Below the pieces are notes generated by a model, which was not told where the DNA came from, did not search any database, and saw only the letters and a list, made by a program, of their open reading frames with translations. The position numbers and the translations under genes are program-made. Positions 1,300-24,315 of a DNA stretch of 37,655 nt are shown one piece after another (the first letter of the stretch is position 1; the number at the start of each line of letters is the position of its first letter). Location of the stretch: contig JAOPVD010000034.1 of NCBI GenBank assembly GCA_025966295.1, positions 1 to 37,655 on the forward strand. The letters run 5' to 3'. The DNA comes from Frankiales bacterium. GTDB lineage: Bacteria > Actinomycetota > Actinomycetes > Mycobacteriales > SCTD01.

Positions 1300-1391
1300 G
1301 GACCCCTCGCGCACCCGCCCAGAGCCCGCCTGCCCTTGCTGCCTTCCGGCCCTGGGGGAGTTCAGCGAGATGGGCGCCGCACGAGGGGTCT
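1300..1391 (-). ncRNA. ffs: Signal recognition particle small RNA (4.5S)
   Basis: Reverse complement contains the domain IV motif CAGGGCCGGAAGGCAGCAAGGG inside a long stem closed by GACCCCTCG...CGAGGGGTC; sits directly upstream of dnaX. Confidence 0.93.
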
Positions 1392-3312: not shown

Positions 3313-3669
3313 GTGCCGCACTCCCTCGGCGCCCCCCTCGGCTGGCCGGCCCGAGTGCCTGCCGCGCCGGAGCACCCGGCGCGGGCGGACTGCCGCTGCT
3401 ACTGGTGCTGCACCGCCGCCGCCGCCGAGCTCTACCGCGACGCCCTGGCCCGGGTGACCGAAATGAGCCTGACGGAGGCCGCCCGCGCCGCCGGCGCCCG
3501 GACTCCCGAGGAGGTGTCGGTGCTCGCCGCGGAGATCAGCAGCGAGCGTCAGCGGCTCGGGCCTGACGCCGCCGGCCGGGTGGAGGCTGTGGAGGGCCGC
3601 CATCAGGCGCCGGAGCCGACGGGTGCTCCTACTGCGGGCGCAGGGCCATCCACAGCGCCGTCGCGCTGA
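3313..3669 (+). CDS. Hypothetical protein with a CRCYWCC cysteine cluster
   Basis: GGAG 6 nt upstream of GTG at 3313; helical middle segment; the 3' end overlaps the convergent regulator by 41 nt. Confidence 0.4.
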   Translation: MPHSLGAPLGWPARVPAAPEHPARADCRCYWCCTAAAAELYRDALARVTEMSLTEAARAAGARTPEEVSVLAAEISSERQRLGPDAAGRVEAVEGRHQAPEPTGAPTAGAGPSTAPSR

Positions 3670-4264: not shown

Positions 4265-4329
4265 TTTCACAACCGTGAACTCGGGCGTGGGCTTGACGCT
4301 GCTCCTCCGGGATGTCCAACATAGTGAAC
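4265..4329. promoter_or_regulatory. Divergent promoter region with two 16-bp palindromic operator candidates
   Basis: TTTCAC-AACC-GTGAAC (4265-4280) and GTCCAA-CATA-GTGAAC (4314-4329) flank a TTGACG -35-like hexamer (4293-4298). Confidence 0.65.
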
Positions 4330-5704: not shown

Positions 5705-5967
5705 GCGCACCCAGGCAGTCCTTCCCGCGCTGGCTGCGCAGCACCTCCGAGCACCACCTGCTGGTGGTCGCCCAGGCCAAGGTGGCGCGTCGCAACGGGC
5801 TGGTGCCGCCCAAGCCCCACGGTCTCGACATCTTCTGGCAGAAGGTCTACGCGCCCGTCTTCTACCTCCTGCCGTATTCGCTCCGGGCCAAGGCGGCCAA
5901 CGCCCTGCCCGGCAGCCACAAGCAGACCTGGCACCAGCCCGATCAGGTGAAGGGGCCGGCCGTCTGA
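5701..5967 (+). CDS. Hypothetical 88-aa basic protein
   Basis: GTG overlaps the upstream stop (GTGA); reads as a real protein (SFPRWLRST...FWQKVYAPVFYLLPY...LPGSHKQTW) with G/C third positions. Confidence 0.75.
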   Translation: MSAPRQSFPRWLRSTSEHHLLVVAQAKVARRNGLVPPKPHGLDIFWQKVYAPVFYLLPYSLRAKAANALPGSHKQTWHQPDQVKGPAV

Positions 5968-6025
5968 GGCACGACCGCACGACCGCACGCAGAAACGACC
6001 CCTGTCGCCCTTGGAGGCAACACGC

Positions 6026-6517
6026 ATGAGCTCGCAGACCAACAACATCCCGAGGGCCCAAGAGGGCGACATCCTCTACGACACCAGCGAGAAGGTCTTC
6101 CCGGACATCCAGGCGGAGCCGGGTGAGACGGCCTTCGTGTTCATCCACTCGGTGCCCTTCGAGGGCTCCGTGGCGCTGGTCAACCTGCTCACCTCGACGC
6201 GCCTGCGTCGCAAGGGCTTCGACGTCAGCATCGTGCTGTACGGCCCGGCCGTCCTCATCGCCTCCGCCACCCGGGGCTACCCGTCCGTGGGCAAGGAGGG
6301 CTTCCCCGGCAACCTGTCGATGAACAAGCAGCTCAAGGTCCTCATGGACGAGGGCGCCAAGATCTACGCCTGCCGCTTCGCGATGGGTGCGCTCTACGGC
6401 ATGCGCGAGGACGACCTCATCGAGGGCGTCAAGGCCTTCAGCCCGCTCGACGTGCTCGACTCCGCGCTGACCGCGTGGCGTCAGAAGTCCTTCCAGCTCA
6501 ACACCTGGACGGTCTGA
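6026..6517 (+). CDS. MSMEG_0572/Sll0783-family DsrE-like protein (Nit1C NitB homolog)
   Basis: GGAGG RBS; EKVFPDIQAEPGE, HSVPFEGS, RLRRKGF, LYGP, IYACRFA, PLDVLD and terminal TWTV match the recalled family motifs. Confidence 0.9.
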   Translation: MSSQTNNIPRAQEGDILYDTSEKVFPDIQAEPGETAFVFIHSVPFEGSVALVNLLTSTRLRRKGFDVSIVLYGPAVLIASATRGYPSVGKEGFPGNLSMNKQLKVLMDEGAKIYACRFAMGALYGMREDDLIEGVKAFSPLDVLDSALTAWRQKSFQLNTWTV

Positions 6518-6598: not shown

Positions 6599-7267
6599 AT
6601 GGACGGCGTTCACGACATGGGCGGCAGGCCCGAGCACTTCGGGCCACTGAAGCCGCTCGACCCGGCGGAGAAGCCCTTCGGTGAGCCCTGGGAGGGACGG
6701 GCCTTTGCCGTGACCCTCCTGGCCAACCGCGCCGCCACGGCCTCCAACCTGCACGCCTTCCGGCACGCGCTCGAGCGCGTCCCCGAGAAGGAGTACCTGG
6801 CCGACTACTACGGCCGCTGGCTCGGCAGCGCCGAGATCCTGCTGGTCGAGAGCGGCCTGCTGGCGCCCGGCGCCGTCGAGGCGCGCGCCCGCAAGCTGCG
6901 CGGCGAGGCGGTCGAGGATCCGGCCGACCCCGAGCCGAACAAGCCCACCATGGAGAGTGGTGGCGGCGGCAACCTACGGAGCGTCGAGGCGGCCCCCGCC
7001 TTCGCCGTAGGTGACCGCGTCACGACCAGCAGCGACGCGGCCAGCGGCCACACCCGCCTGCCCGGCTACGTCCGCGCCAAGGTCGGTACCGTCACGGCGC
7101 TGCGCCCGGCGCAGGTGCTGCCCGACACCGCGGCGCACTTCATCGGGGAGAACCCGCAGCACGTCTACAGCGTCACCTACGACGCCCACGACCTGTGGCG
7201 CGCCGACAGCGAGCCGTTCAGCCTGACCATCGACCTCTACGAGAACTACCTGGAGCGCGCGCAGTGA
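6599..7267 (+). CDS. nthB: Nitrile hydratase beta subunit
   Basis: [54 protein letters not shown]. Confidence 0.95.
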
Positions 7268-7872
7268 CGCAGGCAGACATGCAGCCCGGCATCGACCTGG
7301 CGCTGCGGACCGAGGCCCTCGAGTCCCTGCTGCTGGAGCGCGGCCTGGCCGACACCAAGACGATCGAGACCTTCATCGGGATCTACGAGACCCAGGTCGG
7401 CCCGATGAACGGCGCCAAGGTGGTCGCCAAGGCCTGGACCGACCCGGAGTACAAGGCCCGGCTGCTGGCGGAGGGCACCGCGGCCATCGCGGAGCTGGGC
7501 TTCAAGGGCCCGCAGGGCGAGCACATGGTGGTCCTCGAGAACACACCCGCGGTGCACCACGTCGTGGTCTGCACGCTGTGCTCCTGCTACCCCTGGCCCG
7601 TCCTGGGCCTGCCGCCGTCTTGGTACAAGGACTCGGCGTACCGATCGCGCGTGGTCAGGGAGCCGCGCGCGGTGCTGGCCGAGTGGGGCACCGTGCTCGG
7701 CGACGACGTCGAGGTGAAGGTCGTGGACTCCAGCTCGGAGGTCCGCTACTTCGTGCTGCCCGAGCGCCCTGCGGGCACCGAGAGCCTGTCCGAGGAGGAG
7801 CTCGCCGCCCTCGTCACGCGCGACAACATGGTGGGGGTCACCAAGGTCAGCACCGGGGTCGCTGCCCCGTGA
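7264..7872 (+). CDS. nthA: Nitrile hydratase alpha subunit, cobalt type
   Basis: GTGA overlap; [37 protein letters not shown] (CTLCSCY is the Co-type signature), [18 protein letters not shown]. Confidence 0.96.
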
Positions 7873-8234
7873 CCGCGGCCCTCGACGTCGACGGCGCCGC
7901 TGCGCCGCCCCGGCAGAACGGCGAGCTGGTCTTCGCCGAGCCCTGGGAGGGCCGCGCGTTCGGCCTCGCCATGGCGCTCACCGACGCGGGCGTCATCTCC
8001 TACGACGTGTTCCGCGACGCTTTGATCGCGAAGATCGCCGCCTGGGAGTCCGCCCCGCCCGCGGGCGAGTGCTACTCCTACTACCGCTGCTGGCTGCAGG
8101 CGCTCGAGCAGGTGCTCGCCGACGCCCAGCTCGTGGCTCCGGACGACGTCGCCGCGCGCGCCGCTCTGTTCGCCGTCCGCCCGGCAGGGCACGATCATGA
8201 CCATGACCACGACCACGAGCACCACCACGACTGA
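7869..8234 (+). CDS. Nitrile hydratase accessory/activator protein with His-Asp-rich tail
   Basis: GTGA overlap; [22 protein letters not shown]...[10 protein letters not shown] (beta-like P14K/NhhG-type), ending [15 protein letters not shown]. Confidence 0.9.
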
Positions 8235-8628
8235 GCGGGGCGGCACCAACTCGGCCGTCGCGACCTGGGCGGGCGGATGGCGCTGCGACGTCGAGGCGGG
8301 CGGCTTCTCGCTCGTGGTCGACGAGCCGGTCGACGTCGGCGGTACCGGGCTGGGCCCGATGCCGACCGACCTGCTGCTGGCGTCGATGTCGTCCTGCTAC
8401 GCGCTCGCGCTGGCCTGGGCGGCGAGCAAGCGCGGTGTCGTGCTGCCGGACCTCCAGGTGACGGCGACCGGTACCTACAACGGTCAGAAGTTCGCGGCGC
8501 TGCTGCTCACCGTGACCACGTCGCTGCCGGCGCAGGAGCTGGCGCCGCTGCTCGAACCCGCCAAGCGGGTCTGCTACGTCTCCAACACCTTCGCGCACGC
8601 GCCGGTCATCGAGGTGGAGGTGGCATGA
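8197..8628 (+). CDS. OsmC-family protein
   Basis: VDEPVDVGGTGLGPMPTDLLLASMSSC...AKRVCYVSNT with both conserved Cys; start is 8197 or 8203. Confidence 0.85.
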   Translation: MTMTTTTSTTTTERGGTNSAVATWAGGWRCDVEAGGFSLVVDEPVDVGGTGLGPMPTDLLLASMSSCYALALAWAASKRGVVLPDLQVTATGTYNGQKFAALLLTVTTSLPAQELAPLLEPAKRVCYVSNTFAHAPVIEVEVA

Positions 8629-9179
8629 GCCCGCGCCCGGCCCACGACCACGTGCACGACCCGGCGTGCGCGGCCGCGCACGGCGACGCGGTGCCGCCCA
8701 AGGACACCCGCCGCCTCGTGCTGGTCTTCGTCTCGCCGGTGGCGCAGGAGCTCGCCGCGCTGGCCGACCGGCTGGGCTGGCCGGTCACGGTCGTGGATCC
8801 CGACTCGGCGCTGGTCGACATCGATCCCATCCCCTACGCCCGGACCGTGACGACGGTCGCTGCCGCGCGGCTCGACGACGGCTGCGACGTGGTGCTCTGC
8901 GACCACGGCCGGCCGGAGCTCGGTGACGTGCTCGCCGCGGTGCTGGCGCAGCCGGCGCGCTGGGTGGGGGTCATGGGCAGCCTGCGGCACACCGCCCCGC
9001 ACATCGCGGCGCTGCGCAGCCGGGGCGTGGCCGAGGACGACATCGCCCGGGTCCATCGGCCCATCGGCCTCGACATCGGCTCGCACACCCCGCCGGAGAT
9101 CGCGATCGCCACGGTGGCCGGGCTTCTCGCCGACCGCAACGGCCGCCCCGGCGGTCCGTTCGCCGACACCAGCAGCTGA
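8625..9179 (+). CDS. Stand-alone XdhC/CoxI Rossmann-domain protein
   Basis: ATGA overlap; WVGVMGSLRH and RVHRPIGLDIGSHTPPEIAIA are XdhC C-terminal motifs; no N-terminal XdhC/CoxI domain. Confidence 0.85.
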   Translation: MSPRPAHDHVHDPACAAAHGDAVPPKDTRRLVLVFVSPVAQELAALADRLGWPVTVVDPDSALVDIDPIPYARTVTTVAAARLDDGCDVVLCDHGRPELGDVLAAVLAQPARWVGVMGSLRHTAPHIAALRSRGVAEDDIARVHRPIGLDIGSHTPPEIAIATVAGLLADRNGRPGGPFADTSS

Positions 9180-9224: not shown

Positions 9225-10637
9225 TCAGCGTCCCCGTGCCAGGCGCGCGTCGAGGTCGAGCAGCGCATCCCGGAAGCAGGCCAGCGGCGCCGCGGCGACC
9301 CCCGCCCCGACCTGCCCGGTGCCCTGGCGGTTGTCCAGGATCCCGGTGGTCACCTTGGGCGTGATGCCGTGCTCCACGACCCGTCGTACGTCGACGGCGA
9401 GGGGCGTGCCGCGGCCGCCCAGGGTCGGCAGGGTGAAACGGCTCGAGCGCCCGACGCAGATCCGCTCGAGCTCGGCCGTCAGCTCGCCCGCAGCGGCAAG
9501 GCCTCCCACCAGCTGACCGACGGCGGGCGAGCCTGCGGCGGCGGCGCCGCCCAGGCCGATGAGCTCCAGGACCGCGCTGTCGCCGATGTCCGGAGCGGCG
9601 TCGTCGTCGCCCCTGCCGGGGTGGTACAGCGCGTTGCCGACCATGGGCGCGGGGGCGAGGAACCACTCGTCGTTCCCGGACAGCCTGGTGCCGAACTCCG
9701 TGCCGTTGCGGGCCATGGTCGTGACCACCGAGGAGCCCTCGACCTGCCCGGCCCAGCCCGTCAGAGCGCGGGCCGCGGCCATCGCCAGGGTCAGGAACAA
9801 CAGGTGGTTGCTCGACAGGTAGCGACCGACCTCGACCCGGCGTGGGTCGGCACTGGCCATCAAGGAGGGCAGCAGGTGCTTGATCAGCAGGTTGGTGGAG
9901 GCCTGGGTGCGGACGTGGACGTCGTCGCCCATGGCCACGCCCTGGGCGGCGAACGCCAGGACCTCCACCGGTCCGCTGTGGCGCAGCGTCTCGGCGAGCA
10001 GCGGGGCGACGGCCTCGCGCAGCAGGACCAGCCGGTCGATCGCCCCCGGGGTGTCACGGCCGAACCACGCGACGTCCCCGGAGCCCTGCCCCAGCGGCGC
10101 CCAGGACGCCACCCCGCCGGCGGCGAGCTCGACGACCCACACCGGCGTCGTCGGGCCCATCACGGTGGCCATCGGGACGACACCGCCCGACTCGTTGGCG
10201 GGCCGCAGCGCGACGGAACCGCTCGCCAGCAGGGCATCTGCGGCCTCGACGTCGGCTGCCCAGCCCTCGGCCACGACCGCCGCGCGCATCGAGCGGCGCA
10301 GCGGGTCACCCGCGTCGGCCAGCTCCATCGCCGGACCCGCGTGCAGCAGCACCCGACCCTGCAGGCCGGGCACGACCTCGGACGCCGGGCGCACATCGGT
10401 GAGAGTCGGGACGCCGGTGTCCAGCCGGCGCAGGACCTCCGCGTTGGCCTCGTCAATGGGCCCGGTCAGCGGGCCCGAGAGCCGGCGCAGCGCGTCCAGG
10501 GCGACGGGGTCGCCGCCGGCGGGGATACGCCAGTCCACCTGGACGACCGGTCGTCCCTGGGCCGCGACGGCGTCCGCGAACAGCGGCAGCCCGACGTTGA
10601 CGACGGACACCTCGTCCGGAAGGGCAATGGGGTTCAT
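9225..10637 (-). CDS. DUF1116 family protein (YahG/YlbE-AllG-like)
   Basis: VVNVGLPLFA...VDWRIPAGGD N-terminus (YahG architecture), LLHAGP, AMGDD, TTMARNGTEFG, PDIGDSAVLE, GQVGAG. Confidence 0.88.
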   Translation of the reverse strand: MNPIALPDEVSVVNVGLPLFADAVAAQGRPVVQVDWRIPAGGDPVALDALRRLSGPLTGPIDEANAEVLRRLDTGVPTLTDVRPASEVVPGLQGRVLLHAGPAMELADAGDPLRRSMRAAVVAEGWAADVEAADALLASGSVALRPANESGGVVPMATVMGPTTPVWVVELAAGGVASWAPLGQGSGDVAWFGRDTPGAIDRLVLLREAVAPLLAETLRHSGPVEVLAFAAQGVAMGDDVHVRTQASTNLLIKHLLPSLMASADPRRVEVGRYLSSNHLLFLTLAMAAARALTGWAGQVEGSSVVTTMARNGTEFGTRLSGNDEWFLAPAPMVGNALYHPGRGDDDAAPDIGDSAVLELIGLGGAAAAGSPAVGQLVGGLAAAGELTAELERICVGRSSRFTLPTLGGRGTPLAVDVRRVVEHGITPKVTTGILDNRQGTGQVGAGVAAAPLACFRDALLDLDARLARGR

Positions 10638-12148
10638 GCCGTGATCTCCTGTCCCTGTCCGGCGGCCAGTGCACGGGCGGTCGAGAGCAGGTCACGCTCG
10701 GCGGCGTGGAACCCTTCTCGGCGTCCTTGCGCCAACGCACGCAGCTGCTGCGCTTGGTCGCGGCAGTCCTGCGCCATCTGCTCCACCACGGGCGGGGCGG
10801 CCCCACCCGTGGCGGTGCGGGTCTCGACGATGTGTCGCGGGTCGAGCACGTCGGTGAGGTCTGTTCCGGTCAGCCCGACTGACCGGCCGGCCTGCTCCAG
10901 CGCGGCCTCGTCGAGCATCGCGCCGTCGATGTCGATCCCGCGCAGCCCGGCGGCGTTCGCCTTGCGCACGGCGACACCGACGACCTGGTAGGCGGTGCGG
11001 TAGTCCAGGTCGCACGTCTGCATCACGTACTCCGCCAGGTCCGTGGCCTGGCAGAAGCCGTTCTCGAGCGCTGACCACATCCGCGCGGTGTTGACCTGCA
11101 GCGTGCGGATCACGCCGTCGGTCAACCGGGTGGTGCGGAGCGCCAGGTCGAGGGCGCGCGGGACCTCGCCGTACGCGTAGATGAGGTTGTCGCTGCGCGC
11201 CGACGGGCTCTTGATGACGGCGAGGAAGCCGCTCAACCGGCCGATGAGAGTGCCCGAGGCGCCGCGGATGATCGACAGCGCGTAGGGGTTGCGCTTCTGC
11301 GGCATCAGGACGCTGGACCGGCTGAACCCGTCGGCGACCGTGACGTAGTCGAACTCGCTGCTGGCCCAGATCTCCAGGTCCTCCGCCAGCTTGCTCTGCG
11401 TCCCGACGAGCGAGGCAGCCGCGGCCAGGACGTCGACCAGGCCATCGGTCTGCCACATCGCGTCGCGGGTGTGCTCGATGACGCCGTCGAAGCCCAGCAT
11501 GCTCGCGACCGGCCGGCGGTCGTCGAGCAGGCGGCTGCCGTTGACGCACCCGGCTCCACCGGGGCTGGTGTTGGTCCAGGCCAGGGCATCGACGAGCCGG
11601 CGGGTGTCACGCAGCACGGGATAGGCGAACGACAGCAGGTAGTGGCCGTACGTCGACGGCTGCGCGTGCTGCAGGTAGGTCTGGTCGGGCAACCAGCTGC
11701 GGCTGTGCTCGGCGGCGCTGAGGGCGAGGGTGTCCGCGAGCTGGGCCGCGCGGTCGACCAGCTCGGTGATCTGCCCCCGCAGGTGCAGGCGCAGCGCGAT
11801 GCGGACCGCCTCGCGCCGGGGCCGGCCGGCATGCAACCACCCGGCGTCGTCCCCGATCTGCTCGGTGAAGAAGCGCTCCCGGCTGTTGTACGGCTCCCCG
11901 TAGGCAGGGTCGTAGGGGAAGTCCTCGGGCGCGGTTCCGTGCGTCTCGAGCAGCAGGGCCAGGAGGCGCCGCGCCGGCTCGACGGGAATCACGCCGCGTC
12001 CGCGCAGGTCGAGCACGTGCGCGAGGTCGGCGAGGTTCAAGCCGGCGTGCAGCAGCGGCGCGTCGGCGTTCTCGAGGTGGAACCCCGACTCGACGAGCTC
12101 AGGGGCGGGCCCGTCGAGCGGCGGGCCGAGCCGGTGTCCGGCGGTCAT
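10634..12148 (-). CDS. Argininosuccinate-lyase-like enzyme (aspartase/fumarase superfamily), XcbC-like candidate
   Basis: LHAGRPRRE, QTYLQHAQP, SKLAEDL, SSVLMPQKRNPY, ATDLAEY, YRTAYQVVG; ArgH fold with non-canonical catalytic residues. Confidence 0.85.
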   Translation of the reverse strand: MTAGHRLGPPLDGPAPELVESGFHLENADAPLLHAGLNLADLAHVLDLRGRGVIPVEPARRLLALLLETHGTAPEDFPYDPAYGEPYNSRERFFTEQIGDDAGWLHAGRPRREAVRIALRLHLRGQITELVDRAAQLADTLALSAAEHSRSWLPDQTYLQHAQPSTYGHYLLSFAYPVLRDTRRLVDALAWTNTSPGGAGCVNGSRLLDDRRPVASMLGFDGVIEHTRDAMWQTDGLVDVLAAAASLVGTQSKLAEDLEIWASSEFDYVTVADGFSRSSVLMPQKRNPYALSIIRGASGTLIGRLSGFLAVIKSPSARSDNLIYAYGEVPRALDLALRTTRLTDGVIRTLQVNTARMWSALENGFCQATDLAEYVMQTCDLDYRTAYQVVGVAVRKANAAGLRGIDIDGAMLDEAALEQAGRSVGLTGTDLTDVLDPRHIVETRTATGGAAPPVVEQMAQDCRDQAQQLRALAQGRREGFHAAERDLLSTARALAAGQGQEITA

Positions 12149-13074
12149 CTGTCTTCTCCCATGAATCCGGCGACCGCGTCGAGCAGGCCACCTGTGTGCC
12201 AGAACAGCGCTGCCTGGTCGCCGACGGCGGCCGGCAGCACGGCGAGTGCCTTCGCCGTGTACACGGGGTCGAGGACGAGTCCCTCCGCCCGCAGGGCCAG
12301 GCACGCGGCGGCGTCACCGGCGGCCGAGGCCAGGCCGTGCCCGGGGCCGCGGGCGTCGACCAGCTCGACGTCGTCGGCCCGAGGGGCCGGCTCGCCGCGC
12401 AGGGCCGCCACCTGCCGGGCGAGGTCGAGCACCTGCACGTCCTCCACGGGTCGGCTCACCGAGGCGCCGACGATCCGGAGCGGACGGCCGTGGGCGACGT
12501 TGCCGGCGATGAGCCCGGCGAGGGTCCCGCCGGCACCGCAGGCGATCACGACCACCGGCCGGCGTCCCTGGAGCTGCTCGAGCAGCTCGTCGACGGCGAC
12601 GCGGTAGGCGTCCGCGCCCGTCGCGCTGGCTCCGCCCCTGGGCACGACGTACGGCGAGAAGCCCTGTTCCCTGAGGGCGGCGGCCGTGACGGGCAGCTGG
12701 GCGTCGACGCTGGCGCGGTCGGCGTCACCGGTGAAGCGGACCTCGGCGCCCCACGCCGCGGCCGCCGCGAGGTTGGGGTGGGAGGTGAGCGGCACCGGGT
12801 CGCCGGCCAGCACCAGGACGCAGCGCAGGCCGCCCCAGGCGGCGGCGGCCGAGGCGGCCTGGACGAAGTTGGACCCCGGCGTGCCACCGGTGACCAGGAC
12901 GTCGGCGTGCTGGGCCTGGGCGTCGGCGACGATCGGCGCCAGCTGCCTGGCCTTGTTGCCGGCGACGGCGAAGCCGGTGAGGTCGTCACGCTTGACGAGC
13001 AGCGACGTGACCCCCAGGGCTGCGGCCAGCCGAGGGGCCTGGACGAGCGGGGTCGGGAGCAGGGCCAGGGTCAC
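12145..13074 (-). CDS. PLP-dependent D-cysteine desulfhydrase/ACC deaminase family enzyme, XcbE-like candidate
   Basis: PTPL, VKRDDLTG, GNKARQL (PLP Lys), VPRGGAS, GAGGTLAG, EGLVLDPVYTAKA, FWHTGG. GTG at 13074 overlaps the upstream stop. Confidence 0.9.
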   Translation of the reverse strand: MTLALLPTPLVQAPRLAAALGVTSLLVKRDDLTGFAVAGNKARQLAPIVADAQAQHADVLVTGGTPGSNFVQAASAAAAWGGLRCVLVLAGDPVPLTSHPNLAAAAAWGAEVRFTGDADRASVDAQLPVTAAALREQGFSPYVVPRGGASATGADAYRVAVDELLEQLQGRRPVVVIACGAGGTLAGLIAGNVAHGRPLRIVGASVSRPVEDVQVLDLARQVAALRGEPAPRADDVELVDARGPGHGLASAAGDAAACLALRAEGLVLDPVYTAKALAVLPAAVGDQAALFWHTGGLLDAVAGFMGEDR

Positions 13075-14402
13075 GGCCACTGCTCTGGCTCGTCGGCGCG
13101 CGCCTTGCGGGCGCGCAGGACGACGTGGTCGACCATCTCGCCGGCCGAGCCGGCCGCCGGGTGCAGCGCCGCGATCTCCTGCGGCGTCAGCAGGTCCGCC
13201 ACCACCGCCGTGAGGGACCGTCCGGTGGAGAGGGCCTGCTGCAGCGTGTCCTGGGCCTGGTGCTTGCCGAGCCGGGTGGTGAGCACGGCCAGGACCTGCT
13301 CGCTGCCGGTGGCGTCGCCGAGGTTGCGGCGCATGGCCTCGGTGTCGACCTCCAGGCCCTCGACGAGCTCGACGGCGAGGGACGTGGCTGTCGCGGTCAG
13401 CAGGCACACCTCCGGCAGCGCCACCCACTCGGCCTTCCAGCTGCGGCCGTCGCGCTCGTGCCCGCCCACCATGCCCTCGAGCAGCACCGCGGCCTGGGCG
13501 CGGGTCAGGCGGGCCAGGGTGTCGAGGTGCTCGCTGCGCTCGGGGTTGACCTTGTGCGGCATGGTGATGCTGCCGACGACACCGGGGCGCGGCGTCTCGC
13601 GCAGCTCGCCGATCTCCGGGCGCTGCAGCTCGTAGACCTCGCCCCCGAGGCGCGCCAGCGTGCCGGTGACCATCGTCAGTACGGCGCCGACCTCGGCGAT
13701 CCGGTCACGTGCGGTGAGCCAGGAGATCCCCGGGTCGGCAAGGCCCAGCTCGGCGCAGAGCCGCTGGCGCACGGCTGGGCCGGCGGGCCCGAGCGCGGCC
13801 AACGTGCCGACACCGCCGCCGAGCTGACCCACCAGCCAACGGGGTGCGCCCTCGTGCAGGCGGTCGAGGTGACGGCGCACCTCGTCGGCCCAGGAGGCGG
13901 CTTTGAGGCCGAAGGTGACGGGTGCCCCGGGCTGCCCGTGGGTGCGGCCGGGGCCCAGGGTGTCCCTGTGCAGCTCGGCCAGCTCCAGCAGCAGCTCCTC
14001 CAGCCGCCGCAGGTCCCGGCGCACCTCGCGCAGCACGGCCCGCAGGGCGAGAGAGGTCCACGTGTCGGTCAGGTCCTGCACGGTGGCGCCGACGTAGACG
14101 TACGGGTGCACGTCGTCGTCGAGCACCTGCCGGAGGGCCCGGATCAGCCCGAGGGTCGAGTGGCCGCTGGCGCGGGTCTCGGCCGCGACCAGGTCCAGGT
14201 CGAGCAGGTCGACCGACGCGCGCTCGGTGATCTGGTCCGCGGCCGCAGCGGGCACCAGACCCTCCAGGGCCTGCGCCCTGGCGAGCGCCGCGAGGACCTC
14301 GAGCCAGCCCTGCAGCCGGCCGCTCTCGCAGAAGACGGCGCGCACGGCAGGGGTGCCCCAGAGGTGGCCGTACATCCCGGACTCGGTGATGCGGGCACTC
14401 AC
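13071..14402 (-). CDS. Adenylosuccinate-lyase-like enzyme (aspartase/fumarase superfamily), XcbD-like candidate
   Basis: YVGATVQDLTDT, GRTHGQPGAPVTFGLK, GGGVGT, RDRIAE, GSITMPHKVNPE, HERDGRSWKAEW. Confidence 0.87.
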   Translation of the reverse strand: MSARITESGMYGHLWGTPAVRAVFCESGRLQGWLEVLAALARAQALEGLVPAAAADQITERASVDLLDLDLVAAETRASGHSTLGLIRALRQVLDDDVHPYVYVGATVQDLTDTWTSLALRAVLREVRRDLRRLEELLLELAELHRDTLGPGRTHGQPGAPVTFGLKAASWADEVRRHLDRLHEGAPRWLVGQLGGGVGTLAALGPAGPAVRQRLCAELGLADPGISWLTARDRIAEVGAVLTMVTGTLARLGGEVYELQRPEIGELRETPRPGVVGSITMPHKVNPERSEHLDTLARLTRAQAAVLLEGMVGGHERDGRSWKAEWVALPEVCLLTATATSLAVELVEGLEVDTEAMRRNLGDATGSEQVLAVLTTRLGKHQAQDTLQQALSTGRSLTAVVADLLTPQEIAALHPAAGSAGEMVDHVVLRARKARADEPEQWP

Positions 14403-15271
14403 GGCTGGGCCAGCTGCACGGCGCTGTCGAGGGCCTCCCGCAGGTGCCCGAAGGACGCGCCCCACGGCACGACGACGACCTGGCCGTCGGTCTCGACGTG
14501 CTCCTCGAGCAGACAGCACTTGGTCAGCAGCACCTCTCCGGGTGCGAGGTCGACGGCCTTTGCCAGCACCCGCGGGCAGGTGTCTACCTGGCGCACGTCG
14601 TCGTCGTAGAGGAAGTCGTGGATCGCGCGTGACCGGGCGCAGCCCAGCAGCGTCCAGTCCTGCCGGGGCGGCACCTCGTCGAGGTAGTGGACCGTGGTAC
14701 CGGGCACCTCCATGCCGCCGCCGCGGCAGGGCAGCAGGTAGTGGCCCGAGGCACCGGCGGGCACGAGGTCACCGAGCTCGACGACCTCCGGCACGGGGAG
14801 GACCCCTGGCAGCTCCTCGGCGGTGGCGAGCACCCGCTGGACCTGGTCGAGCAGCTTGGCCGGGTGTGGCGGTGCCACGTCGAGCACGTGCAGGCGCACC
14901 GGCGCGCTGTCGAGCACGAAGCTGATGTGGCCGTAGCGGCCCTCGAGGACCACGCAGCGCACGCCGGGCCGCATCGACGCGGCGCGGGCCAGGTCGCTCG
15001 GGATGCCGGGATCCAGGGCGTCGTCCACGACCCAGGCGGTCTCGTCGGGACCGGCCAGCAGCCGCACGTCGAGCACGTCCCAGAACAGCGAGTCCGACGC
15101 GCGCTTGTCGACCTCGACCAGGGCGGTCTCCCCGGCGTGACGGAGGACGAGGTACCGGGTGCGGCGGTAGACCGGCCGCGACATCAGCAGCTCGCGCAGC
15201 GCCGCGGCCGTCAGGGGGACATCGACGTCGGTGACCGAGACCTCGCGGTAGCGGTCGGGGATCGTGGTCAC
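14399..15271 (-). CDS. Hypothetical Cys-rich protein inside the comA operon
   Basis: 4-nt overlaps at both ends; motifs EGRYGHISF, LLPCRGGG, LLGCARSRAIH, DTCPR, TKCCLLE, VPWGA. No family recognised with certainty. Confidence 0.8.
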   Translation of the reverse strand: MTTIPDRYREVSVTDVDVPLTAAALRELLMSRPVYRRTRYLVLRHAGETALVEVDKRASDSLFWDVLDVRLLAGPDETAWVVDDALDPGIPSDLARAASMRPGVRCVVLEGRYGHISFVLDSAPVRLHVLDVAPPHPAKLLDQVQRVLATAEELPGVLPVPEVVELGDLVPAGASGHYLLPCRGGGMEVPGTTVHYLDEVPPRQDWTLLGCARSRAIHDFLYDDDVRQVDTCPRVLAKAVDLAPGEVLLTKCCLLEEHVETDGQVVVVPWGASFGHLREALDSAVQLAQP

Positions 15272-16029
15272 CGAGCGCGCACCCGGCTGTCGAAGGTGTC
15301 GGCCCGCAGACCCACCCGGAGGGCCTCGAGGCCGAGAGCGTCGGACGGTGCGACGTTGGCGAGGTTGACGTCCGGGCCGAAGCGGCGGATCAGCCAGGCC
15401 TGCTGCTCCTTCAAAGGTGCCTCGAACACCGTCGTGTCGAGCCCGACGGCGTCGACGACGGCGTCGACCACGTCGGACCGCACCTCCCCCGTCGGGTCGA
15501 ACAGCCCCACGGTGCCGCTCTCCCTGCCCTCGGTGACGATCCAGGTGGCGCCGGCCTCGAGGTCGGCCGTCGCGTCGGCCGCCCACGCCGACGGCGAGAC
15601 CGTGGCGTCGGCGTCCTTGACGCCGATCTCGGCGAGCACGATGAAGCGCTCCGCGGCGAGCTCGACCAGCTCGCGCTTGTCCGTGACCGACATGGCGGCG
15701 ACGCCGCAGGAGACCTCGACGCAGGGAAAGCCGAGCTCGCCCGCCCAGTCGAGGTAGGGCTCGACCGCGCCCTGCTGCCACGCGACCTCGAGCAGCGTGC
15801 CCCCGAGGCAGGCCAGCACTCCGTGACCGTCGAGCACCGCCAGCTTCTCGGCCAGCCCGGGGTCGAGGTAGGCCGTGCCCCAGCCGAGCTTCCACACGTC
15901 GACGTAGTCGCCGCAGACCCCGAGAAGGGGGGCCACCTCGGCGACGGGCATGCCCTTGTCGAGCACGTGGGTGATACCGCGGCGACGAGGCTTCGCCGTC
16001 CGCGCGGGCAGGGTCAGGAAACTCGGCAT
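15268..16029 (-). CDS. comA: (2R)-phospho-3-sulfolactate synthase (ComA/XcbB-like)
   Basis: KPRRRGITHVLDKG, YVDVWKLGWGT, GGTLLE, VEVSCG, EIGVKD, EGRESG, FEAPLKEQQ, FGPDVNLANV, LEALRVGLRADT. Start is 16029 or 16041. Confidence 0.93.
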   Translation of the reverse strand: MPSFLTLPARTAKPRRRGITHVLDKGMPVAEVAPLLGVCGDYVDVWKLGWGTAYLDPGLAEKLAVLDGHGVLACLGGTLLEVAWQQGAVEPYLDWAGELGFPCVEVSCGVAAMSVTDKRELVELAAERFIVLAEIGVKDADATVSPSAWAADATADLEAGATWIVTEGRESGTVGLFDPTGEVRSDVVDAVVDAVGLDTTVFEAPLKEQQAWLIRRFGPDVNLANVAPSDALGLEALRVGLRADTFDSRVRAR

Positions 16030-16032: not shown

Positions 16033-16048
16033 GTTCACCATGGTAGAC
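16033..16048. promoter_or_regulatory. Operator candidate between divergent comA and AIR-synthase-like genes
   Basis: GTTCAC-CATG-GTAGAC; contains a TACCAT -10-like hexamer on the minus strand. Confidence 0.55.
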
Positions 16049-16085: not shown

Positions 16086-17033
16086 GTGACCGATCTCGCC
16101 GCCCTGGCCGCCGGCCTGCGAGACCTCCCCGGCGTGCGCGCCAAGGCCGACATCGGCCTGGTCGCGGAGGTCTTCGGCGGCGGTGACTGGTACGCCGGCC
16201 CCGGTGACGACGGCGCGGTGCTGCCCGACGGGCCGGGACAGGTGGTCGTGGGTGGCGAGGCGATCCTGCCGGCGTTCGTGGCTGCGGACCCGTACGGGGC
16301 TGGCATCGCGGCAGTGCTGGCCAACGTCAACGACCTGGCCGCGATGGGCGCGCGGCCCGTTGCCCTGCTCGACACCGTCGTCGGTGACGAGGCGACGAGC
16401 CGCGAGGTGCTGCGCGGCATGCAGTGGGCCGCCGACCTGTACCAGGTCCCGGTGGTCGGGGGGCACCTCACGCGTACCGACGGTCCGCCGTCGCTGTCGG
16501 CCTTCGGCATCGGCCGTGCGGACAAGGTGCTGTCGGCGACCCACGCGGCGGCCGGTCAGGTCCTCGTGCTGGGCTGCTGCCTGGAAGGGACGATGCGCCA
16601 GGACTTCTTGTTCTTCCCCTCCTTCGAGCAGCGCGGAGCGCAGCTCGCCGGCGACGTGCGGCTGCTGGCCGACCTGGCGACGAGCGGTGCGGCAGTTGCC
16701 GCGAAGGACGTGAGCATGGCGGGCCTGGTCGGCTCGCTCGCGATGCTGCTCGAGGCGGGCCGGCTCGGCGTGACCGTCGACCTCGACGCGCTGCCCGTGC
16801 CGGACGGTGTACCGCTGGCCGACTGGCTCGGGTGCTTCCCCTGCTTCGCGTTCTTGCTGACCTGCCCCGCCGACCGGGTAGCGGACTGCCTGGCGGGCTT
16901 CCGCGGTCGCGGTCTGACGGCCGAGGCGCTGGGGGTGCTCGACACCAGCGGGCAGGTGCGGTTGCGGCGCGGGGACGAGGTGGCGACGGTGTTCGACCTG
17001 GTCACTGAGGGCGTCACGAACCTGCGCAGCTAG
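16086..17033 (+). CDS. AIR synthase-related protein, sll0787/MSMEG_0567 C-terminal family (Nit1C NitF homolog)
   Basis: AGGAGG RBS; GPGDDGAVL, NVNDLAAMGARP, VVGGHLT, AAKDVSMAGLVGSLAMLLE, WLGCFPCFAFLL. Confidence 0.9.
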   Translation: MTDLAALAAGLRDLPGVRAKADIGLVAEVFGGGDWYAGPGDDGAVLPDGPGQVVVGGEAILPAFVAADPYGAGIAAVLANVNDLAAMGARPVALLDTVVGDEATSREVLRGMQWAADLYQVPVVGGHLTRTDGPPSLSAFGIGRADKVLSATHAAAGQVLVLGCCLEGTMRQDFLFFPSFEQRGAQLAGDVRLLADLATSGAAVAAKDVSMAGLVGSLAMLLEAGRLGVTVDLDALPVPDGVPLADWLGCFPCFAFLLTCPADRVADCLAGFRGRGLTAEALGVLDTSGQVRLRRGDEVATVFDLVTEGVTNLRS

Positions 17034-17038: not shown

Positions 17039-17515
17039 TCATAGCGCGATCGTCATGTCCTGGTGGAGCACACCGAGGTAGTCGGCGGGCTCGCCTACCG
17101 GTGTCCACCCGAGGTGCACGAAGAAGGTCGTGTTCACGGCCTGCACCGTCGCGTCCATGCGGCGACCGCCGGCGGCGGCCGCGGTGGCGACGGCGGTCCG
17201 GACCAGCGGTGCTCCGATGCCGGCGTGCCGGTGCTCGGGCAGGACGGCGAGCCGGTCGCCCTTCCACACCCCGTCGCTGAGCGGGTAGAGCCGGACGGTG
17301 CCGGCGGGCTCGTCATCGACGAAGCCCAGGACGTGCACCACCTGGGCGTCGTCGTCGTGGCTGTCGCGGTCGTCGCCGTCGAACAGCCGCTGCTCCTGCA
17401 CGAACACGGCCCGCCGGATGCGGTGGTGCGTCGCGAGCTCGTCGGGGCCCTGGACGGACCGGCAGCGGAGCGCGTCAGGCCTTCGTGAACAGGGGGAGGG
17501 AAGGACGTCCGTCAC
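17039..17515 (-). CDS. GNAT acetyltransferase, MSMEG_0567 N-terminal family (Nit1C NitE homolog)
   Basis: RIRRAVFVQEQRLF..DRD..DD, GTVRLY, WKGDRLAV, GIGAPLVRTAV, FFVHLGW, HQDM. Confidence 0.88.
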   Translation of the reverse strand: MTDVLPSPCSRRPDALRCRSVQGPDELATHHRIRRAVFVQEQRLFDGDDRDSHDDDAQVVHVLGFVDDEPAGTVRLYPLSDGVWKGDRLAVLPEHRHAGIGAPLVRTAVATAAAAGGRRMDATVQAVNTTFFVHLGWTPVGEPADYLGVLHQDMTIAL

Positions 17516-18665
17516 GAGTGCCTCCGTCCGAACGCTCGAACGCGCCCATGCCCGAGCAGGCCTGGCAGCGGGCGCAGCCGGCGGCGACGCCCGAGCTCGA
17601 CATCCCCTTTTGCGCCAGGTACGGCACCACCTGGCGGTAGACCGCCTCGACCGCCTCGCGCGGCGGCGGCAGGAAGTCCTCCATCAGGCTGCCGGGCACC
17701 GGACGCAGCGGCACGATGAACGGGTAGACGCCCAGGTCGATGGCCCGCTTGCAGCCCTCGACGGTCAGCTTCTCGTCCTCGCCAATGCCGAGGATCACGT
17801 AGGTCGACACCTGGCCGGCGCCGAAGGCCTTCACCGCTCGTTCCCAGGCCCCGAAGTAGGCCTCGATGCCCCAGCGCGCCTTGCCCGGTGCGACCCGGGC
17901 GAGCACCGCCGGGTCGAAGGTCTCGATATGGATGCCGACCGAGTCGATGCCCAGGTCGGCCACCCGGTCGATGACGTCGAGGTCGGACGGCGGTTCGAAC
18001 TGCACCTGCACCGGCAGCCCGGCCGCCTCCTTCACGGCCTGCCCGCAGCGACCGACGTACATCGCCCCGCGGTCGGGGGTAGCGGTGCTGCCCGTGGTCA
18101 GGGTCGCGTCGACCGCGCCGTCGAGCTCCTTTGCCGCGAGGGCCACCTCGGCCAGCATCGCCGGGGTCTTCTTCGCGATGGTGCGGCCCTGGGCCAGCGT
18201 GACGCCGATGCCGCAGAACTGGCACTGGTCGTCGTTGCCCCAGTAGGCGCAGGTCTGCAGCACCGTGCTGGCCACGGAGTCCAGGTGCAGCAGGGCGATC
18301 TGGTGGTAGGGGATGCCGTCGGCGGTCGTCAGGTCGTAGTACTTCGGGCGGGGGGCCAGGGCGGCGGTCGCGAGCCGCTCGCTGCCCTGGTAGACCGCCC
18401 AGCTGCCGTCGTCCTCCCCACGCAGGGCATAGGGCGAGCTCTCGACGTACGACGCACTCGTCGGCACCGTGGTCTGCACGCCCTCGATGTACAGCATCCC
18501 GGCGTCGGCCGGTCCGGCGCCGCCGGCGCGGGCGGACAGCGGCACCTCGACCCGCAGCCCGGAGCTCTGCAGCGACGTCAGCAGCTGCGCCAGGGCCTCG
18601 GCGGACAGCACGGGGGCCGGAGCTGGGGTGTCGATGCCGTGGGCATCGGACGTGGTGAGGGTCAT
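17475..18665 (-). CDS. MSMEG_0568-family radical SAM protein (Nit1C NitD homolog)
   Basis: RAGGAGPAD, PKYYDLTTADGIPY, LQTCAYWGNDDQCQFC, LTTG, QFEPP, GQVSTYVILGIGE, YPFIVPLRP, GCARCQACS. ATG at 18665 after GGAGAAGG. Confidence 0.92.
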   Translation of the reverse strand: MTLTTSDAHGIDTPAPAPVLSAEALAQLLTSLQSSGLRVEVPLSARAGGAGPADAGMLYIEGVQTTVPTSASYVESSPYALRGEDDGSWAVYQGSERLATAALAPRPKYYDLTTADGIPYHQIALLHLDSVASTVLQTCAYWGNDDQCQFCGIGVTLAQGRTIAKKTPAMLAEVALAAKELDGAVDATLTTGSTATPDRGAMYVGRCGQAVKEAAGLPVQVQFEPPSDLDVIDRVADLGIDSVGIHIETFDPAVLARVAPGKARWGIEAYFGAWERAVKAFGAGQVSTYVILGIGEDEKLTVEGCKRAIDLGVYPFIVPLRPVPGSLMEDFLPPPREAVEAVYRQVVPYLAQKGMSSSGVAAGCARCQACSGMGAFERSDGGTRDGRPSLPLFTKA

Positions 18666-18695: not shown

Positions 18696-18711
18696 ATTCA
18701 CTATAGGAAAT
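18696..18711. promoter_or_regulatory. Operator candidate upstream of the radical SAM gene
   Basis: ATTCAC-TATA-GGAAAT containing TATAGT on the minus strand; a TTGACA lies 23 bp further upstream (non-canonical spacing). Confidence 0.5.
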
Positions 18712-18730: not shown

Positions 18731-19396
18731 TCAAGGGTTGGGGGTACCTCGCCGCAGCGCCTCGGCCCGGGCGTCGCGCTCGCCGGCGCCCGGATACGAC
18801 GTGGCGGACGCACCTGTCTCGCGGGACTCCGTGACCGAACCGGTGGCCAGATCGACGTGCAGCGGCTCGACGGCGTGCACCACGCTGGTGAAGTCCTCGT
18901 CGGGGGTGGCCGTCACGAGCAGCGCCCGGCCGGTGGCGACCTCGACCTCGAGCCGGTGGTAGGGCACGAACGGGTCGCCCTCGGGGTGACCCGCTTCCTC
19001 TACCACGACCCATTCCTGGCCGGAGCGACGCGCGTCGGCGAGCGTGCGCAACCGCCGCGCGACGGCCTGCTCGCCCACCACCTCCCGGTGCCGCATCGCC
19101 AGCGCGGCGTCGGCCACCAGGGCGAGGTCGAGCTCGGCAGGGCTCATCCCGCTGTCGGTCAGCACGTCGACCACGAGGTCGGGGCCGCGCTCGGCGGCGA
19201 GCAGGAGGGCGGCGGTCGACGGCCCCAGCTCACGCAGGCGGTCGACCGTCATCCGGACGAGCTGCACCACCCGCTGGTAGATGTCCGGCCGCGAGGTCAC
19301 CGAGGGGTACAGGCGCGCTTCGGCCTGCTGCCAGGCTGCGCTGGTCAGCATCGGCACCGAACTGTCGTCAAAAGCGTGATTCCCGGGCTCGGTCAT
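18731..19396 (-). CDS. Hypothetical protein
   Basis: 221-aa ORF filling the gap, GGAAGGG upstream, protein-like composition (WQQAEARLYP, ALAMRHRE, PYHRLEV). Confidence 0.75.
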   Translation of the reverse strand: MTEPGNHAFDDSSVPMLTSAAWQQAEARLYPSVTSRPDIYQRVVQLVRMTVDRLRELGPSTAALLLAAERGPDLVVDVLTDSGMSPAELDLALVADAALAMRHREVVGEQAVARRLRTLADARRSGQEWVVVEEAGHPEGDPFVPYHRLEVEVATGRALLVTATPDEDFTSVVHAVEPLHVDLATGSVTESRETGASATSYPGAGERDARAEALRRGTPNP

Positions 19397-19415: not shown

Positions 19416-19431
19416 GTTCACTATGCTGCAC
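19416..19431. promoter_or_regulatory. Operator candidate overlapping a TATGCT -10 element
   Basis: GTTCAC-TATG-CTGCAC, 14/16 identical to the reverse complement of 4314-4329; directly precedes ATG at 19432. Confidence 0.6.
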
Positions 19432-24302: not shown

Positions 24303-24315
24303 AGGGCCTCTCTTC

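Follow-up and report, generated by a model that had tools for sequence, protein, structure and literature searches.

Contig JAOPVD010000034.1 of the Frankiales bacterium assembly GCA_025966295.1 (Actinomycetes; Mycobacteriales; SCTD01), analysed here over its whole length of 37,655 nucleotides and hereafter called the window, carries on its minus strand (10634-16029) five overlapping genes, xcbB(comA)-xcbA-xcbD-xcbE-xcbC, that appear to form a complete bacterial operon for the biosynthesis of coenzyme M (CoM), the product being predicted by homology. The operon sits inside a supercluster of about 19 kb (3.6-23.1 kb) with the hallmark families of the Nit1C cluster and of the gpr locus of Mycobacterium smegmatis. 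The presence of an xcb set in a supercluster of this type points to an unrecognised job of CoM in bacteria. The window is one contig of a 3.08 Mb assembly (378 contigs, 88.4% complete, 2.9% contamination), and, at a G+C content of 73%, its genes were called by frame analysis of the GC content at third codon positions, with the junctions read directly on the minus strand.

A predicted CoM biosynthesis operon

The five genes (Table 1) are linked by four-nucleotide start/stop overlaps which read, on the minus strand, GTGA (15271-15268), GTGA (14402-14399), GTGA (13074-13071) and ATGA (12148-12145). A fifth overlap, ATGA at 10637-10634, joins xcbC to a gene of the AllG-like family (oxamate carbamoyltransferase subunit), the sixth of the operon, and the two are predicted to be translationally coupled. 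In the characterised pathway of Xanthobacter autotrophicus Py2, as given in the available part of the source, XcbB is ComA, XcbC removes phosphate to give sulfoacrylate, XcbD adds cysteine, XcbE releases sulfoethanethioaldehyde, and XcbA, a nine-cysteine [2Fe-2S] protein, reduces the latter to CoM (PMC9457059). A preliminary description of this DNA had listed the five genes with four overlaps, all of which are real at the positions claimed, and had equated comA with XcbB and the PurB-like, D-cysteine-desulfhydrase-like and ArgH-like enzymes with XcbD, XcbE and XcbC, in agreement with that study; it missed the extension of the operon into the AllG-like gene and left the second protein as a cysteine-rich unknown. 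This protein, which contains DUF7714, matches the NCBIfam XcbA family (NF052538) with 303.5 bits, above the cut-off of 150, and, given the role of XcbA in the Xanthobacter pathway, can be identified as XcbA, which makes the CoM set complete.

The other enzymes fall short of the corresponding thresholds. The best model for XcbD is NF052536 (554 bits, cut-off 600; next model 397), for XcbE NF052537 (238 bits, cut-off 450; next model, CuyA, 173) and for XcbC NF052535 (446.5 bits, cut-off 575; ArgH 272.7), and ComA scores 243 bits with the archaeal model TIGR03849 (cut-off 280). With four models under their curated cut-offs, strict membership by the NCBI rule is not reached; these are, however, narrow "exception" or equivalog models, and in each of XcbD, XcbC and XcbE the Xcb model outscores the housekeeping families. 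A quick maximum-likelihood tree of 80 XcbD sequences (LG+G4; one long outgroup; the four short rows L006, L017, L059 and L084 left out) parts the Xcb family from the PurB/PcaB paralog of the same genome at a node with a value of 99. The lyases thus do not group with ordinary ArgH, PurB or PcaB proteins, an outcome that the preliminary description had named as fatal to its own assignment.

Sequence comparison with characterised enzymes is in line with these assignments. Cysteines C182, C211, C232, C252 and C253 of XcbA are invariant relative to XcbA of Xanthobacter and of Nocardioides sp. JS614; the GSITMPHK-NPE loop of XcbD is invariant relative to the characterised XcbD1; the S..PQKRNP loop and the TYLQ-AQP block of XcbC, as well as the GNK motif with the pyridoxal 5'-phosphate (PLP) lysine and the GSGGT loop of XcbE (47% identity to XcbE1), are invariant relative to the Xanthobacter enzymes. 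Which of these residues are catalytic is presumed here from the superfamilies to which the enzymes belong. Identity of the window proteins to those of Xanthobacter is 41% for XcbB, 35-39% for XcbC, 42-45% for XcbD, 47-48% for XcbE and 37% for XcbA, compared with 36, 37, 43, 44 and 44%, respectively, for the accepted CoM operons of JS614 and Mycolicibacterium chubuense NBB4, so that four of the five window proteins are as close to the characterised enzymes as those of accepted operons, XcbA alone being lower. The ComA of the window is 49% identical to that of JS614 and 41% identical to XcbB1 of Xanthobacter.

An alternative to be considered at this point is that the product is not free CoM but some other sulfonated compound; for example, a CoM-like moiety or pathway intermediate could be built into a glycosylated or acetylated small molecule by the GT4 glycosyltransferase, GNAT acetyltransferase, AIR-synthase-like and radical SAM proteins of the supercluster, which would yield a new low-molecular-weight thiol or sulfonated metabolite. 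The scores of XcbC, XcbD and especially XcbE, the furthest from its Xcb cut-off, are compatible with this, and so is the XcbD tree, in which all 75 supercluster-linked sequences form a clade (SH-aLRT 85) that leaves out the alkene-linked forms, namely Xanthobacter and JS614 plus NBB4. Moreover, the combination of GNAT with a GT4 protein that also matches MshA and BshA recalls the logic of thiol biosynthesis, and the xcb-linked radical SAM proteins are a distinct subfamily (371-408 bits, compared with 472-524 for the classical one). Nevertheless, the related loci keep the five enzymes together, the terminal reductase XcbA among them, the motifs listed above are invariant at a level of identity equal to that of the ethene oxidisers for four of the five proteins, and classical Nit1C clusters have the same glycosyltransferase, GNAT, AIR-synthase-like and radical SAM genes without xcb. 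Given these observations, a product other than CoM or a very close thiol appears unlikely.

Absence of alkene and epoxide machinery

The whole genome was searched by tblastn with Xanthobacter XamoA, XamoD, XamoE, XamoF, XecA, XecC, XecD and XecE. In the window contig the sole match is a generic XecC-like flavoprotein (26915-27328; 30% identity over 149 residues), which, together with family scans (Pfam, NCBIfam) of positions 1-26.7 kb, upholds the original claim that the 37 kb contain no alkene monooxygenase, epoxyalkane:CoM transferase (EaCoMT; XecA/EtnE) or 2-ketopropyl-CoM oxidoreductase/carboxylase (2-KPCC). In the 88.4%-complete genome no EaCoMT match is found at E < 1e-5, nor at 1e-30, and the XecC matches, for 2-KPCC, are generic flavoproteins with at most 30% identity. 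One XamoA-like gene (26% identity), encoding the only soluble di-iron monooxygenase (SDIMO) of the genome, is present on contig C28, but it adjoins catechol 2,3-dioxygenase and meta-cleavage enzymes and is therefore a phenol hydroxylase and not an alkene monooxygenase. Thus, the genome-wide search for etnE/xecA and di-iron monooxygenases that the preliminary description proposed yields no EaCoMT and this single SDIMO. The C28 locus itself (L005, 4035-12476) consists of a multicomponent phenol-hydroxylase-type monooxygenase heading a complete meta-cleavage aromatic pathway in the order catechol 2,3-dioxygenase, 2-oxopent-4-enoate hydratase, acetaldehyde dehydrogenase and 4-hydroxy-2-oxovalerate aldolase.

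The EaCoMT search was calibrated with the genuine EtnE proteins of JS614 and NBB4, which show 46-51% identity to XecA at about 300-360 bits, and with generic methionine-synthase-II proteins at about 31%. None of ten other carrier genomes examined, two of them complete chromosomes, has an EaCoMT-grade match, and by this calibration the weak XecA matches that they do contain (24-33% identity, at most 78 bits) are ruled out as EaCoMT. Likewise, XamoA, XamoE and EaCoMT are absent within 10 kb on either side of xcbA in all 80 related loci described below, a search in which the positive controls worked.

Conservation of the linkage between xcb and Nit1C-type genes

Relatives of XcbA form 2,014 clusters at E ≤ 1e-10 among 8,000 candidates scored and occur in 345 species-level genomes, the best 80 of which were compared with the window proteins by tblastn. 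The 80 loci, some of them truncated and all from kindred genomes that do not constitute independent samples, come nearly all from Actinomycetota, including cultured Geodermatophilus, Nonomuraea, Sphaerimonospora, Microbispora, Nocardioides, Kribbella and Pseudonocardia; 46 of them extend at least 9.5 kb to both sides of xcbA and are called full-flank loci. The xcb genes are retained throughout (XcbA 80, XcbD 77, ComA 76, XcbC 67, XcbE 67), and gene order is nearly fixed: glycosyltransferase<, FdrA<, carbamate kinase<, 221-aa protein>, radical SAM>, GNAT>, AIR-synthase-like<, xcbB>, xcbA>, xcbD>, xcbE>, xcbC>, AllG>, OsmC<, (nitrile hydratase<), MSMEG_0572<, 88-aa protein<, reductase<, Xre>, where the signs give relative orientation. 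At least one Nit1C-type marker is present in all 46 full-flank loci and in 69 of the 80 (for individual genes, see Table 1). The 11 loci without a marker are either truncated (<18 kb) or of a short type found in Pseudonocardia that keeps OsmC, the reductase and the 88-aa gene. In one Pseudonocardia locus, from P. spinosispora (L051, 4288-8119), the region immediately upstream of OsmC-xcb encodes LarE, LarB and LarC of nickel-pincer cofactor synthesis and an F420-type LLM oxidoreductase.

The linkage crosses phyla. By RefSeq names, a plasmid of Methylocystis iwaonis encodes an MSMEG_0565 glycosyltransferase, an FdrA-like "oxidoreductase", a protein similar to the 221-aa protein, a cupin, Pnap_2097 and an sll0787 AIR-synthase-like protein, followed by MSMEG_0567 GNAT, MSMEG_0568 radical SAM, Nit6803 nitrilase, OsmC and comA-xcbA-D-E-C. 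About 20 kb from this cluster the plasmid (NZ_AP027143.1, L087, 203664-204007) carries two short EaCoMT-like fragments with 51-61% identity to XecA residues 14-130, one of them with an in-frame TAG; they look like the decayed remnant of an etnE gene.

Two kinds of xcb genomes in the class

In a sample of 401 genomes drawn evenly from the class of the window, to which the counts in this paragraph refer, XcbA is found in 32 (18 of the 313 high-quality genomes; 22 of the 175 genera). A comparison by hand of the coordinates of XcbA, EaCoMT and the MSMEG_0568 radical SAM protein divides these into two kinds. Fourteen have EaCoMT-like genes, with best XecA-like matches of 42-74% identity and 216-649 bits; 12 reach the calibrated grade or exceed it, and in four the EaCoMT-like gene is within about 10 kb of xcbA. 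The other 18 have no match at E ≤ 1e-30. XcbA is present in every one of the 14 genomes with matches of at least 42% identity, a result that speaks for the validity of the screen. The radical SAM gene is on the xcbA contig in none of the 14 EaCoMT-type genomes and in 15 of the 18 EaCoMT-less ones, at a distance of about 3-4 kb in 13, 9 kb in one and 14.7 kb in one; in the remaining three, xcbA is on a short contig or fragmentary. The association is reciprocal in that XcbA is present in 17 of the 19 genomes with the low-scoring radical SAM subfamily, to which the window protein belongs. No MSMEG_0572 gene is located on the xcbA contig in the ten EaCoMT-type genomes tested. The 18 EaCoMT-less genomes, that of the window included, represent nine families; eight of these genomes are at least 93% complete, one of the eight being a single contig. 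In one EaCoMT-bearing genome (G190:C1:1096356-1097223), the XcbA match is divided between two neighbouring open frames, which cover model positions 3-147 and 146-289; this suggests that this xcbA may be frameshifted or split.

These data bear on the possibility that CoM serves ordinary epoxide or alkene metabolism and that EaCoMT and the monooxygenase lie in the unassembled 12% or so of the genome or on a lost plasmid. The assembly is incomplete and fragmented, alkene genes are typically plasmid-borne (PMC11507031), and 14 of the 32 XcbA genomes of the class do have EaCoMT-like genes. Yet none of the 18 sampled carriers of the window type, the nearly complete ones included, has an EaCoMT-grade match, nor do the two complete chromosomes and eight further carriers; the only SDIMO of the genome belongs to aromatic degradation, and the two kinds of genomes keep apart with respect to the radical SAM linkage. 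This explanation is therefore very improbable. The preliminary description had foreseen an alkene pathway elsewhere in the genome as a way to explain the CoM demand, and the 88.4%-complete genome itself, the ten other carriers and the 17 other sampled carriers are all devoid of EaCoMT-grade matches; its suggestion that CoM has a different job here gains strength from the fact that the operon is conserved as part of a Nit1C/gpr-type supercluster.

A shared promoter motif

The core motif TTCACYATR has four occurrences in the window, all of them in promoter gaps of the supercluster (Table 1), compared with 0.06 occurrences expected, an expectation that is post hoc because the motif was derived from these same four sites. 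An independent check comes from the 80 related loci, where the four equivalent gaps account for 3.8% of the sequence but hold 52 of 75 occurrences; the means for control motifs with shuffled columns are 0.52 occurrences in the gaps and 2.8 in total. This distribution suggests that the four transcription units may be co-regulated through the shared motif. A GlnR box (strict pattern GTNAC-N6-GNAAC) has no match in the window, so that control by GlnR is unsupported by that test.

Adjacency alone is no proof of a shared function, and the xcb and Nit1C-like genes could be mere neighbours, brought together by an accident of gene order or on a shared genomic island, with CoM serving an unrelated need. 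The short Pseudonocardia-type loci, in which radical SAM, AIR-synthase-like, FdrA and carbamate kinase genes are missing within 10 kb, would fit such a view. Conservation of the order across at least nine families of the class and on an alphaproteobacterial plasmid, the predicted coupling of xcbC to the AllG-like gene, the motif common to four transcription units and the reciprocal association with the low-scoring radical SAM subfamily all argue for a functional link, and we consider chance neighbourhood very unlikely.

Other genes of the supercluster

Table 1. Genes and predicted regulatory sites of the supercluster. Bits are followed by model cut-offs where available; "Loci" is the number of the 46 full-flank related loci with the gene.
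Feature	Position	Strand	Family match	Loci	Remarks
XRE-HTH/cupin regulator	3629-4204	-	PF01381, PF07883	33	divergent from reductase operon
Predicted operator-like site	4266-4279			 	Xre/reductase gap; perfect palindrome TTCACaaccGTGAA
Predicted operator-like site	4320-4328	-			Xre/reductase gap; TTCACTATG
CoADR-like flavoprotein	4373-5704	+	TIGR03385, 236.9 bits, under cut-off	37	candidate CoM-disulfide reductase
Conserved 88-aa protein	5701-5967	+	no Pfam or NCBIfam match	31	between reductase and MSMEG_0572 genes
MSMEG_0572/Sll0783-family protein	6011-6517	+	TIGR04044, 198.6 bits (109.85)		DsrE-like; single Cys121
Nitrile hydratase beta, alpha, accessory	6599-8234	+	TIGR03888, 169.8 bits; TIGR01323, 293.8 bits; TIGR03889, 62.8 bits (all above cut-offs)		
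OsmC-family protein	8197-8628 (start 8197 or 8314)	+	PF02566, 2.6e-15	33	two Cys: Cys28, Cys87 (short form)
AllG-like protein	9225-10637	-	PF06545, 203.8 bits (27, Pfam)	39	oxamate-carbamoyltransferase subunit family; directly after xcbC
XcbC	10634-12148	-	NF052535		ArgH-like Lyase_1; predicted: phosphosulfolactate to sulfoacrylate
XcbE	12145-13074	-	NF052537		PLP, D-cysteine-desulfhydrase-like; predicted: release of sulfoethanethioaldehyde
XcbD	13071-14402	-	NF052536		adenylosuccinate-lyase-like (PurB-like Lyase_1); predicted: sulfoacrylate + cysteine to 3-sulfopropionyl-cysteine
XcbA (DUF7714)	14399-15271	-	NF052538, PF24830		Cys-rich putative [2Fe-2S] reductase; predicted last step to CoM
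XcbB/ComA	15268-16029	-	PF02679, 270.5 bits, 1.6e-80		phosphosulfolactate synthase; predicted: phosphoenolpyruvate (PEP) + sulfite to phosphosulfolactate
Motif TTCACCATG	16034-16042	+			comA/AIR-synthase-like divergent promoter gap; same gap with motif in 21/56 related loci
sll0787-type AIR-synthase-like protein	16086-17033	+	TIGR04049, 254 bits (321)	40	divergent from comA
MSMEG_0567/Sll0786-family GNAT	17039-17515	-	TIGR04045, 106.3 bits (68.45)	43	
MSMEG_0568-family radical SAM	17475-18665	-	TIGR04043, 378.8 bits (303.7)	37	
Motif TTCACTATA	18697-18705	+			between 221-aa and radical SAM genes; 8/40 related loci
Conserved 221-aa protein	18731-19396	-			homologs in Pseudonocardia loci and Methylocystis
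Motif TTCACTATG	19417-19425	+			221-aa/carbamate kinase divergent promoter gap; 14/36 related loci
Carbamate kinase	19489-20418	+	TIGR00746, 321.9 bits (358); NF009007, 273.7 bits (266)	34	
FdrA/AllF-like protein	20415-21950	+	NF004760, 363 bits (433)	35	CoA-ligase fold
MSMEG_0565-family GT4 glycosyltransferase	21947-23116	+	TIGR04047, 368.1 bits (259.85)	37	

The flavoprotein at the head of the reductase operon is similar to CoA-disulfide reductase (CoADR) and has a single active-site cysteine in the sequence YSPCGIPY, without a CxxxxC motif; we take this to be a site of the CoADR/NADH-peroxidase type. The cysteine is invariant in the FAD oxidoreductases that adjoin xcb in JS614, NBB4 and Xanthobacter (30-34% identity), and thus a CoADR-type cysteine reductase accompanies xcb in alkene and supercluster contexts alike. 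The alpha subunit of the nitrile hydratase has the motif VCTLCSCY, presumably that of a cobalt-type enzyme. At the position of the nitrile hydratase, some related loci encode a 277-aa protein that belongs to the Amidohydro_2 family and is not a nitrilase. A gene for OsmC also lies beside comA in Methylocystis. Between the OsmC and AllG-like genes the window has an XdhC_C-domain gene (8625-9179, plus strand) that is found at that place in one of the 80 related loci and hence looks like a lineage-specific insertion.

The AIR-synthase-like protein also matches methanogenesis marker 2 (TIGR03267; 165 bits, E 2e-48), a second link to methanogen-type cofactor biology. The radical SAM gene overlaps the GNAT gene by 41 nucleotides, and its product has a Cx8Cx2C arrangement (C139, C148, C151) instead of the canonical CxxxCxxC, along with a C-terminal CxxCxxC. 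Neither Pfam, NCBIfam nor the atlas contains a match to the 221-aa protein, and none of its 86 homologous clusters is named; its confident AlphaFold model (pLDDT 89.4), an N-terminal helical bundle with a C-terminal beta sheet, gives no PDB match at E ≤ 0.001 (best TM-score 0.19), so that the protein may represent a new fold family tied to the supercluster.

The FdrA-like protein is 51% identical to the "oxidoreductase" of the Methylocystis cluster. In Escherichia coli, AllFGH (FdrA, YlbE, YlbF) is the oxamic transcarbamylase and AllK a catabolic carbamate kinase (PMC11326118, PMC9843812). In the window's genome this set is incomplete: AllG passes its cut-off, FdrA is below, carbamate kinase passes NF009007, and AllH (PF11392) is not found in the genome. 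In eight related loci AllH adjoins AllG. The 221-aa protein is probably not a substitute for AllH, given that Kribbella has both. Two Nit1C-type components have no counterpart anywhere in the genome: the best match is 25.7 bits (cut-off 502.6) for the Nit6803/sll0784-type nitrilase and 52.2 bits (cut-off 498.35) for the MSMEG_0569 flavoprotein. The flanks (1-1314, minus strand, and 23353-26673) contain dnaX, truncated by the contig end, a tadA-like deaminase, three unknowns and a DUF559/REase_MTES_1575 protein, all of which appear unrelated to the supercluster; the genes at 23353-25605 have no homolog in the 80 related loci, which places the right border of the supercluster at about 23.1 kb.

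Predicted function of CoM in the supercluster

In M. smegmatis, nitrogen starvation raises the expression of MSMEG_0565-0572 (gpr) more than 500-fold by way of GlnR; the locus confers peroxide resistance and raises the NADPH/NADP ratio, and its deletion causes peroxide sensitivity (PMC6039565). The Nit1C nitrilase is described as essential for the use of cyanide as a nitrogen source in Pseudomonas (PMC7815647), and raised CoM levels are reported to protect methanogens from oxidative stress (PMC12713407). We consider it probable, with reservations, that CoM, or a sulfonated thiol very close to it, is the product of the operon and that this compound is the dedicated small thiol of a nitrogen-starvation or stress supercluster and not an epoxide carrier. 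What the data show is the identity of the genes, the coupling of the operon, synteny, the lack of EaCoMT and the shared promoter motif; the CoM product, the thiol cycle and the physiological trigger we infer. By homology, PEP, sulfite and cysteine would be converted via phosphosulfolactate, sulfoacrylate, 3-sulfopropionyl-cysteine and sulfoethanethioaldehyde to 2-mercaptoethanesulfonate. CoM would then be oxidised in the detoxification of peroxides or electrophiles by the OsmC-type and DsrE-like proteins, and the disulfide re-reduced by the CoADR-like reductase, while, under nitrogen limitation, ammonia would come from the nitrile hydratase together with carbamate kinase and the carbamoyltransferase-like FdrA/AllG enzyme.

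A number of observations weigh against this proposal. XcbA alone passes the NCBIfam test, with XcbD, XcbC, XcbE and the archaeal ComA model under their cut-offs, and the separate clade of supercluster XcbD has an SH-aLRT support of only 85 in a quick tree with one long outgroup. The genome is only 88.4% complete, the genomes compared are related, and the sequencing runs that match the stretch are soil-metagenome DNA only, with no RNA run among them. Classical Nit1C/gpr clusters function without xcb, so that CoM is not essential to Nit1C chemistry as such. Mycothiol and ergothioneine are already produced by Actinomycetes, and the usual reductants of OsmC/Ohr proteins are dithiols. The hydrolase at the nitrile hydratase position varies across the 80 loci (nitrile hydratase in 12, Amidohydro_2 in 18, Nit6803-like nitrilase in one), and the E. 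coli oxamic transcarbamylase needs AllH, which was not found in the genome.

A more specific reading, which is quite unlikely in our estimate, is that nitrogen is scavenged from cyanide or nitrile-type compounds in a cycle with CoM as the carrier thiol. CoM or its disulfide would capture cyanide, or an activated cyano group, as S-cyano-CoM, which nitrile hydratase (elsewhere Amidohydro_2 or nitrilase) would hydrate to S-carbamoyl-CoM; phosphorolysis by FdrA/AllG would yield carbamoyl phosphate and free CoM, and carbamate kinase would then produce NH3, CO2 and ATP, with OsmC and the CoADR-like reductase setting the thiol/disulfide state of CoM. If true, this cycle would be a second role of CoM, in Actinomycetota probably the commoner one, and would supply a chemistry for the long-unexplained accessory genes of Nit1C/gpr; a further consequence would be that the operon of the alkene oxidisers may have been borrowed from the supercluster system.

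Should the supercluster operon, as proposed above for a dedicated stress thiol, really make CoM, this would be a second, widespread bacterial use of the smallest cofactor, in connection with nitrogen starvation, resistance to peroxide or the handling of nitriles and cyanide, and a chemical handle on the unexplained Nit1C accessory genes. More than half of the 32 sampled XcbA genomes have no EaCoMT and instead have xcb wired into a Nit1C/gpr-type cluster, which makes comA/xcb genes unsafe indicators, in metagenomes, of the degradation of alkenes or epoxides. Several carriers are harmless soil actinomycetes already in culture (Geodermatophilus ruber DSM 45317, Sphaerimonospora mesophila NBRC 14179, Microbispora hainanensis DSM 45428, Nocardioides daejeonensis, and Kribbella and Pseudonocardia species), so that the question can be put to a direct test. 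A 2024 paper describes CoM biosynthesis genes as known only from methanogens and aerobic alkene users (PMC11507031), and a search of full-text literature, covering neither subscription journals nor supplementary files, found no paper linking xcb or CoM to Nit1C/gpr.

Comparison with known systems

The xcbA-E genes of X. autotrophicus Py2 (PMC9457059) share with the window the five protein families, the catalytic loops, the PLP lysine and the XcbA cysteines, at 35-48% identity. The order is B-A-D-E-C in the window and A-B-C-D-E in Py2, and the window genes have no xamo/xec linkage, look chromosomal and lie inside a Nit1C-type supercluster. Closer in layout are the ethene and vinyl-chloride oxidisers JS614 and NBB4, with the identical order comA-xcbA-xcbD-xcbE-xcbC and a divergent CoADR-type FAD oxidoreductase with the same active-site cysteine (the window proteins are 41-52% identical to those of JS614). 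Their operons, however, adjoin EtnE, alkene monooxygenase, CoA-transferase and short-chain dehydrogenase/reductase genes on plasmids, where the window instead has Nit1C/gpr-type, OsmC, nitrile hydratase and FdrA/AllG/carbamate kinase genes, and their XcbD proteins are outside the supercluster clade.

With Nit1C and gpr (MSMEG_0565-0572) the window shares the radical SAM, GNAT, MSMEG_0572 and MSMEG_0565 families, all above cut-offs, and the AIR-synthase-like protein, below its cut-off, as well as an analogous layout of flavoprotein, small protein, nitrile enzyme and MSMEG_0572 protein. It differs in having nitrile hydratase and the CoADR-like reductase in place of the Nit6803-type nitrilase and the MSMEG_0569 flavoprotein, a radical SAM protein of the lower-scoring subfamily, and the added xcb, OsmC and FdrA/AllG/carbamate kinase modules. 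The last of these resembles allFGHK of E. coli (PMC11326118, PMC9843812) in its FdrA/AllF-like, AllG-like and carbamate kinase genes, but in the window these are split over two divergent units, with AllG fused into the xcb operon, AllH is not found in the genome, and no allantoin genes are nearby. Finally, orphan archaeal-type comABCDE sets in bacteria (10.1101/2021.03.22.436540) are likewise predicted to synthesise CoM without propylene or epoxide enzymes; the window differs from these in its bacterial Xcb route and in the partner system that is conserved beside it.

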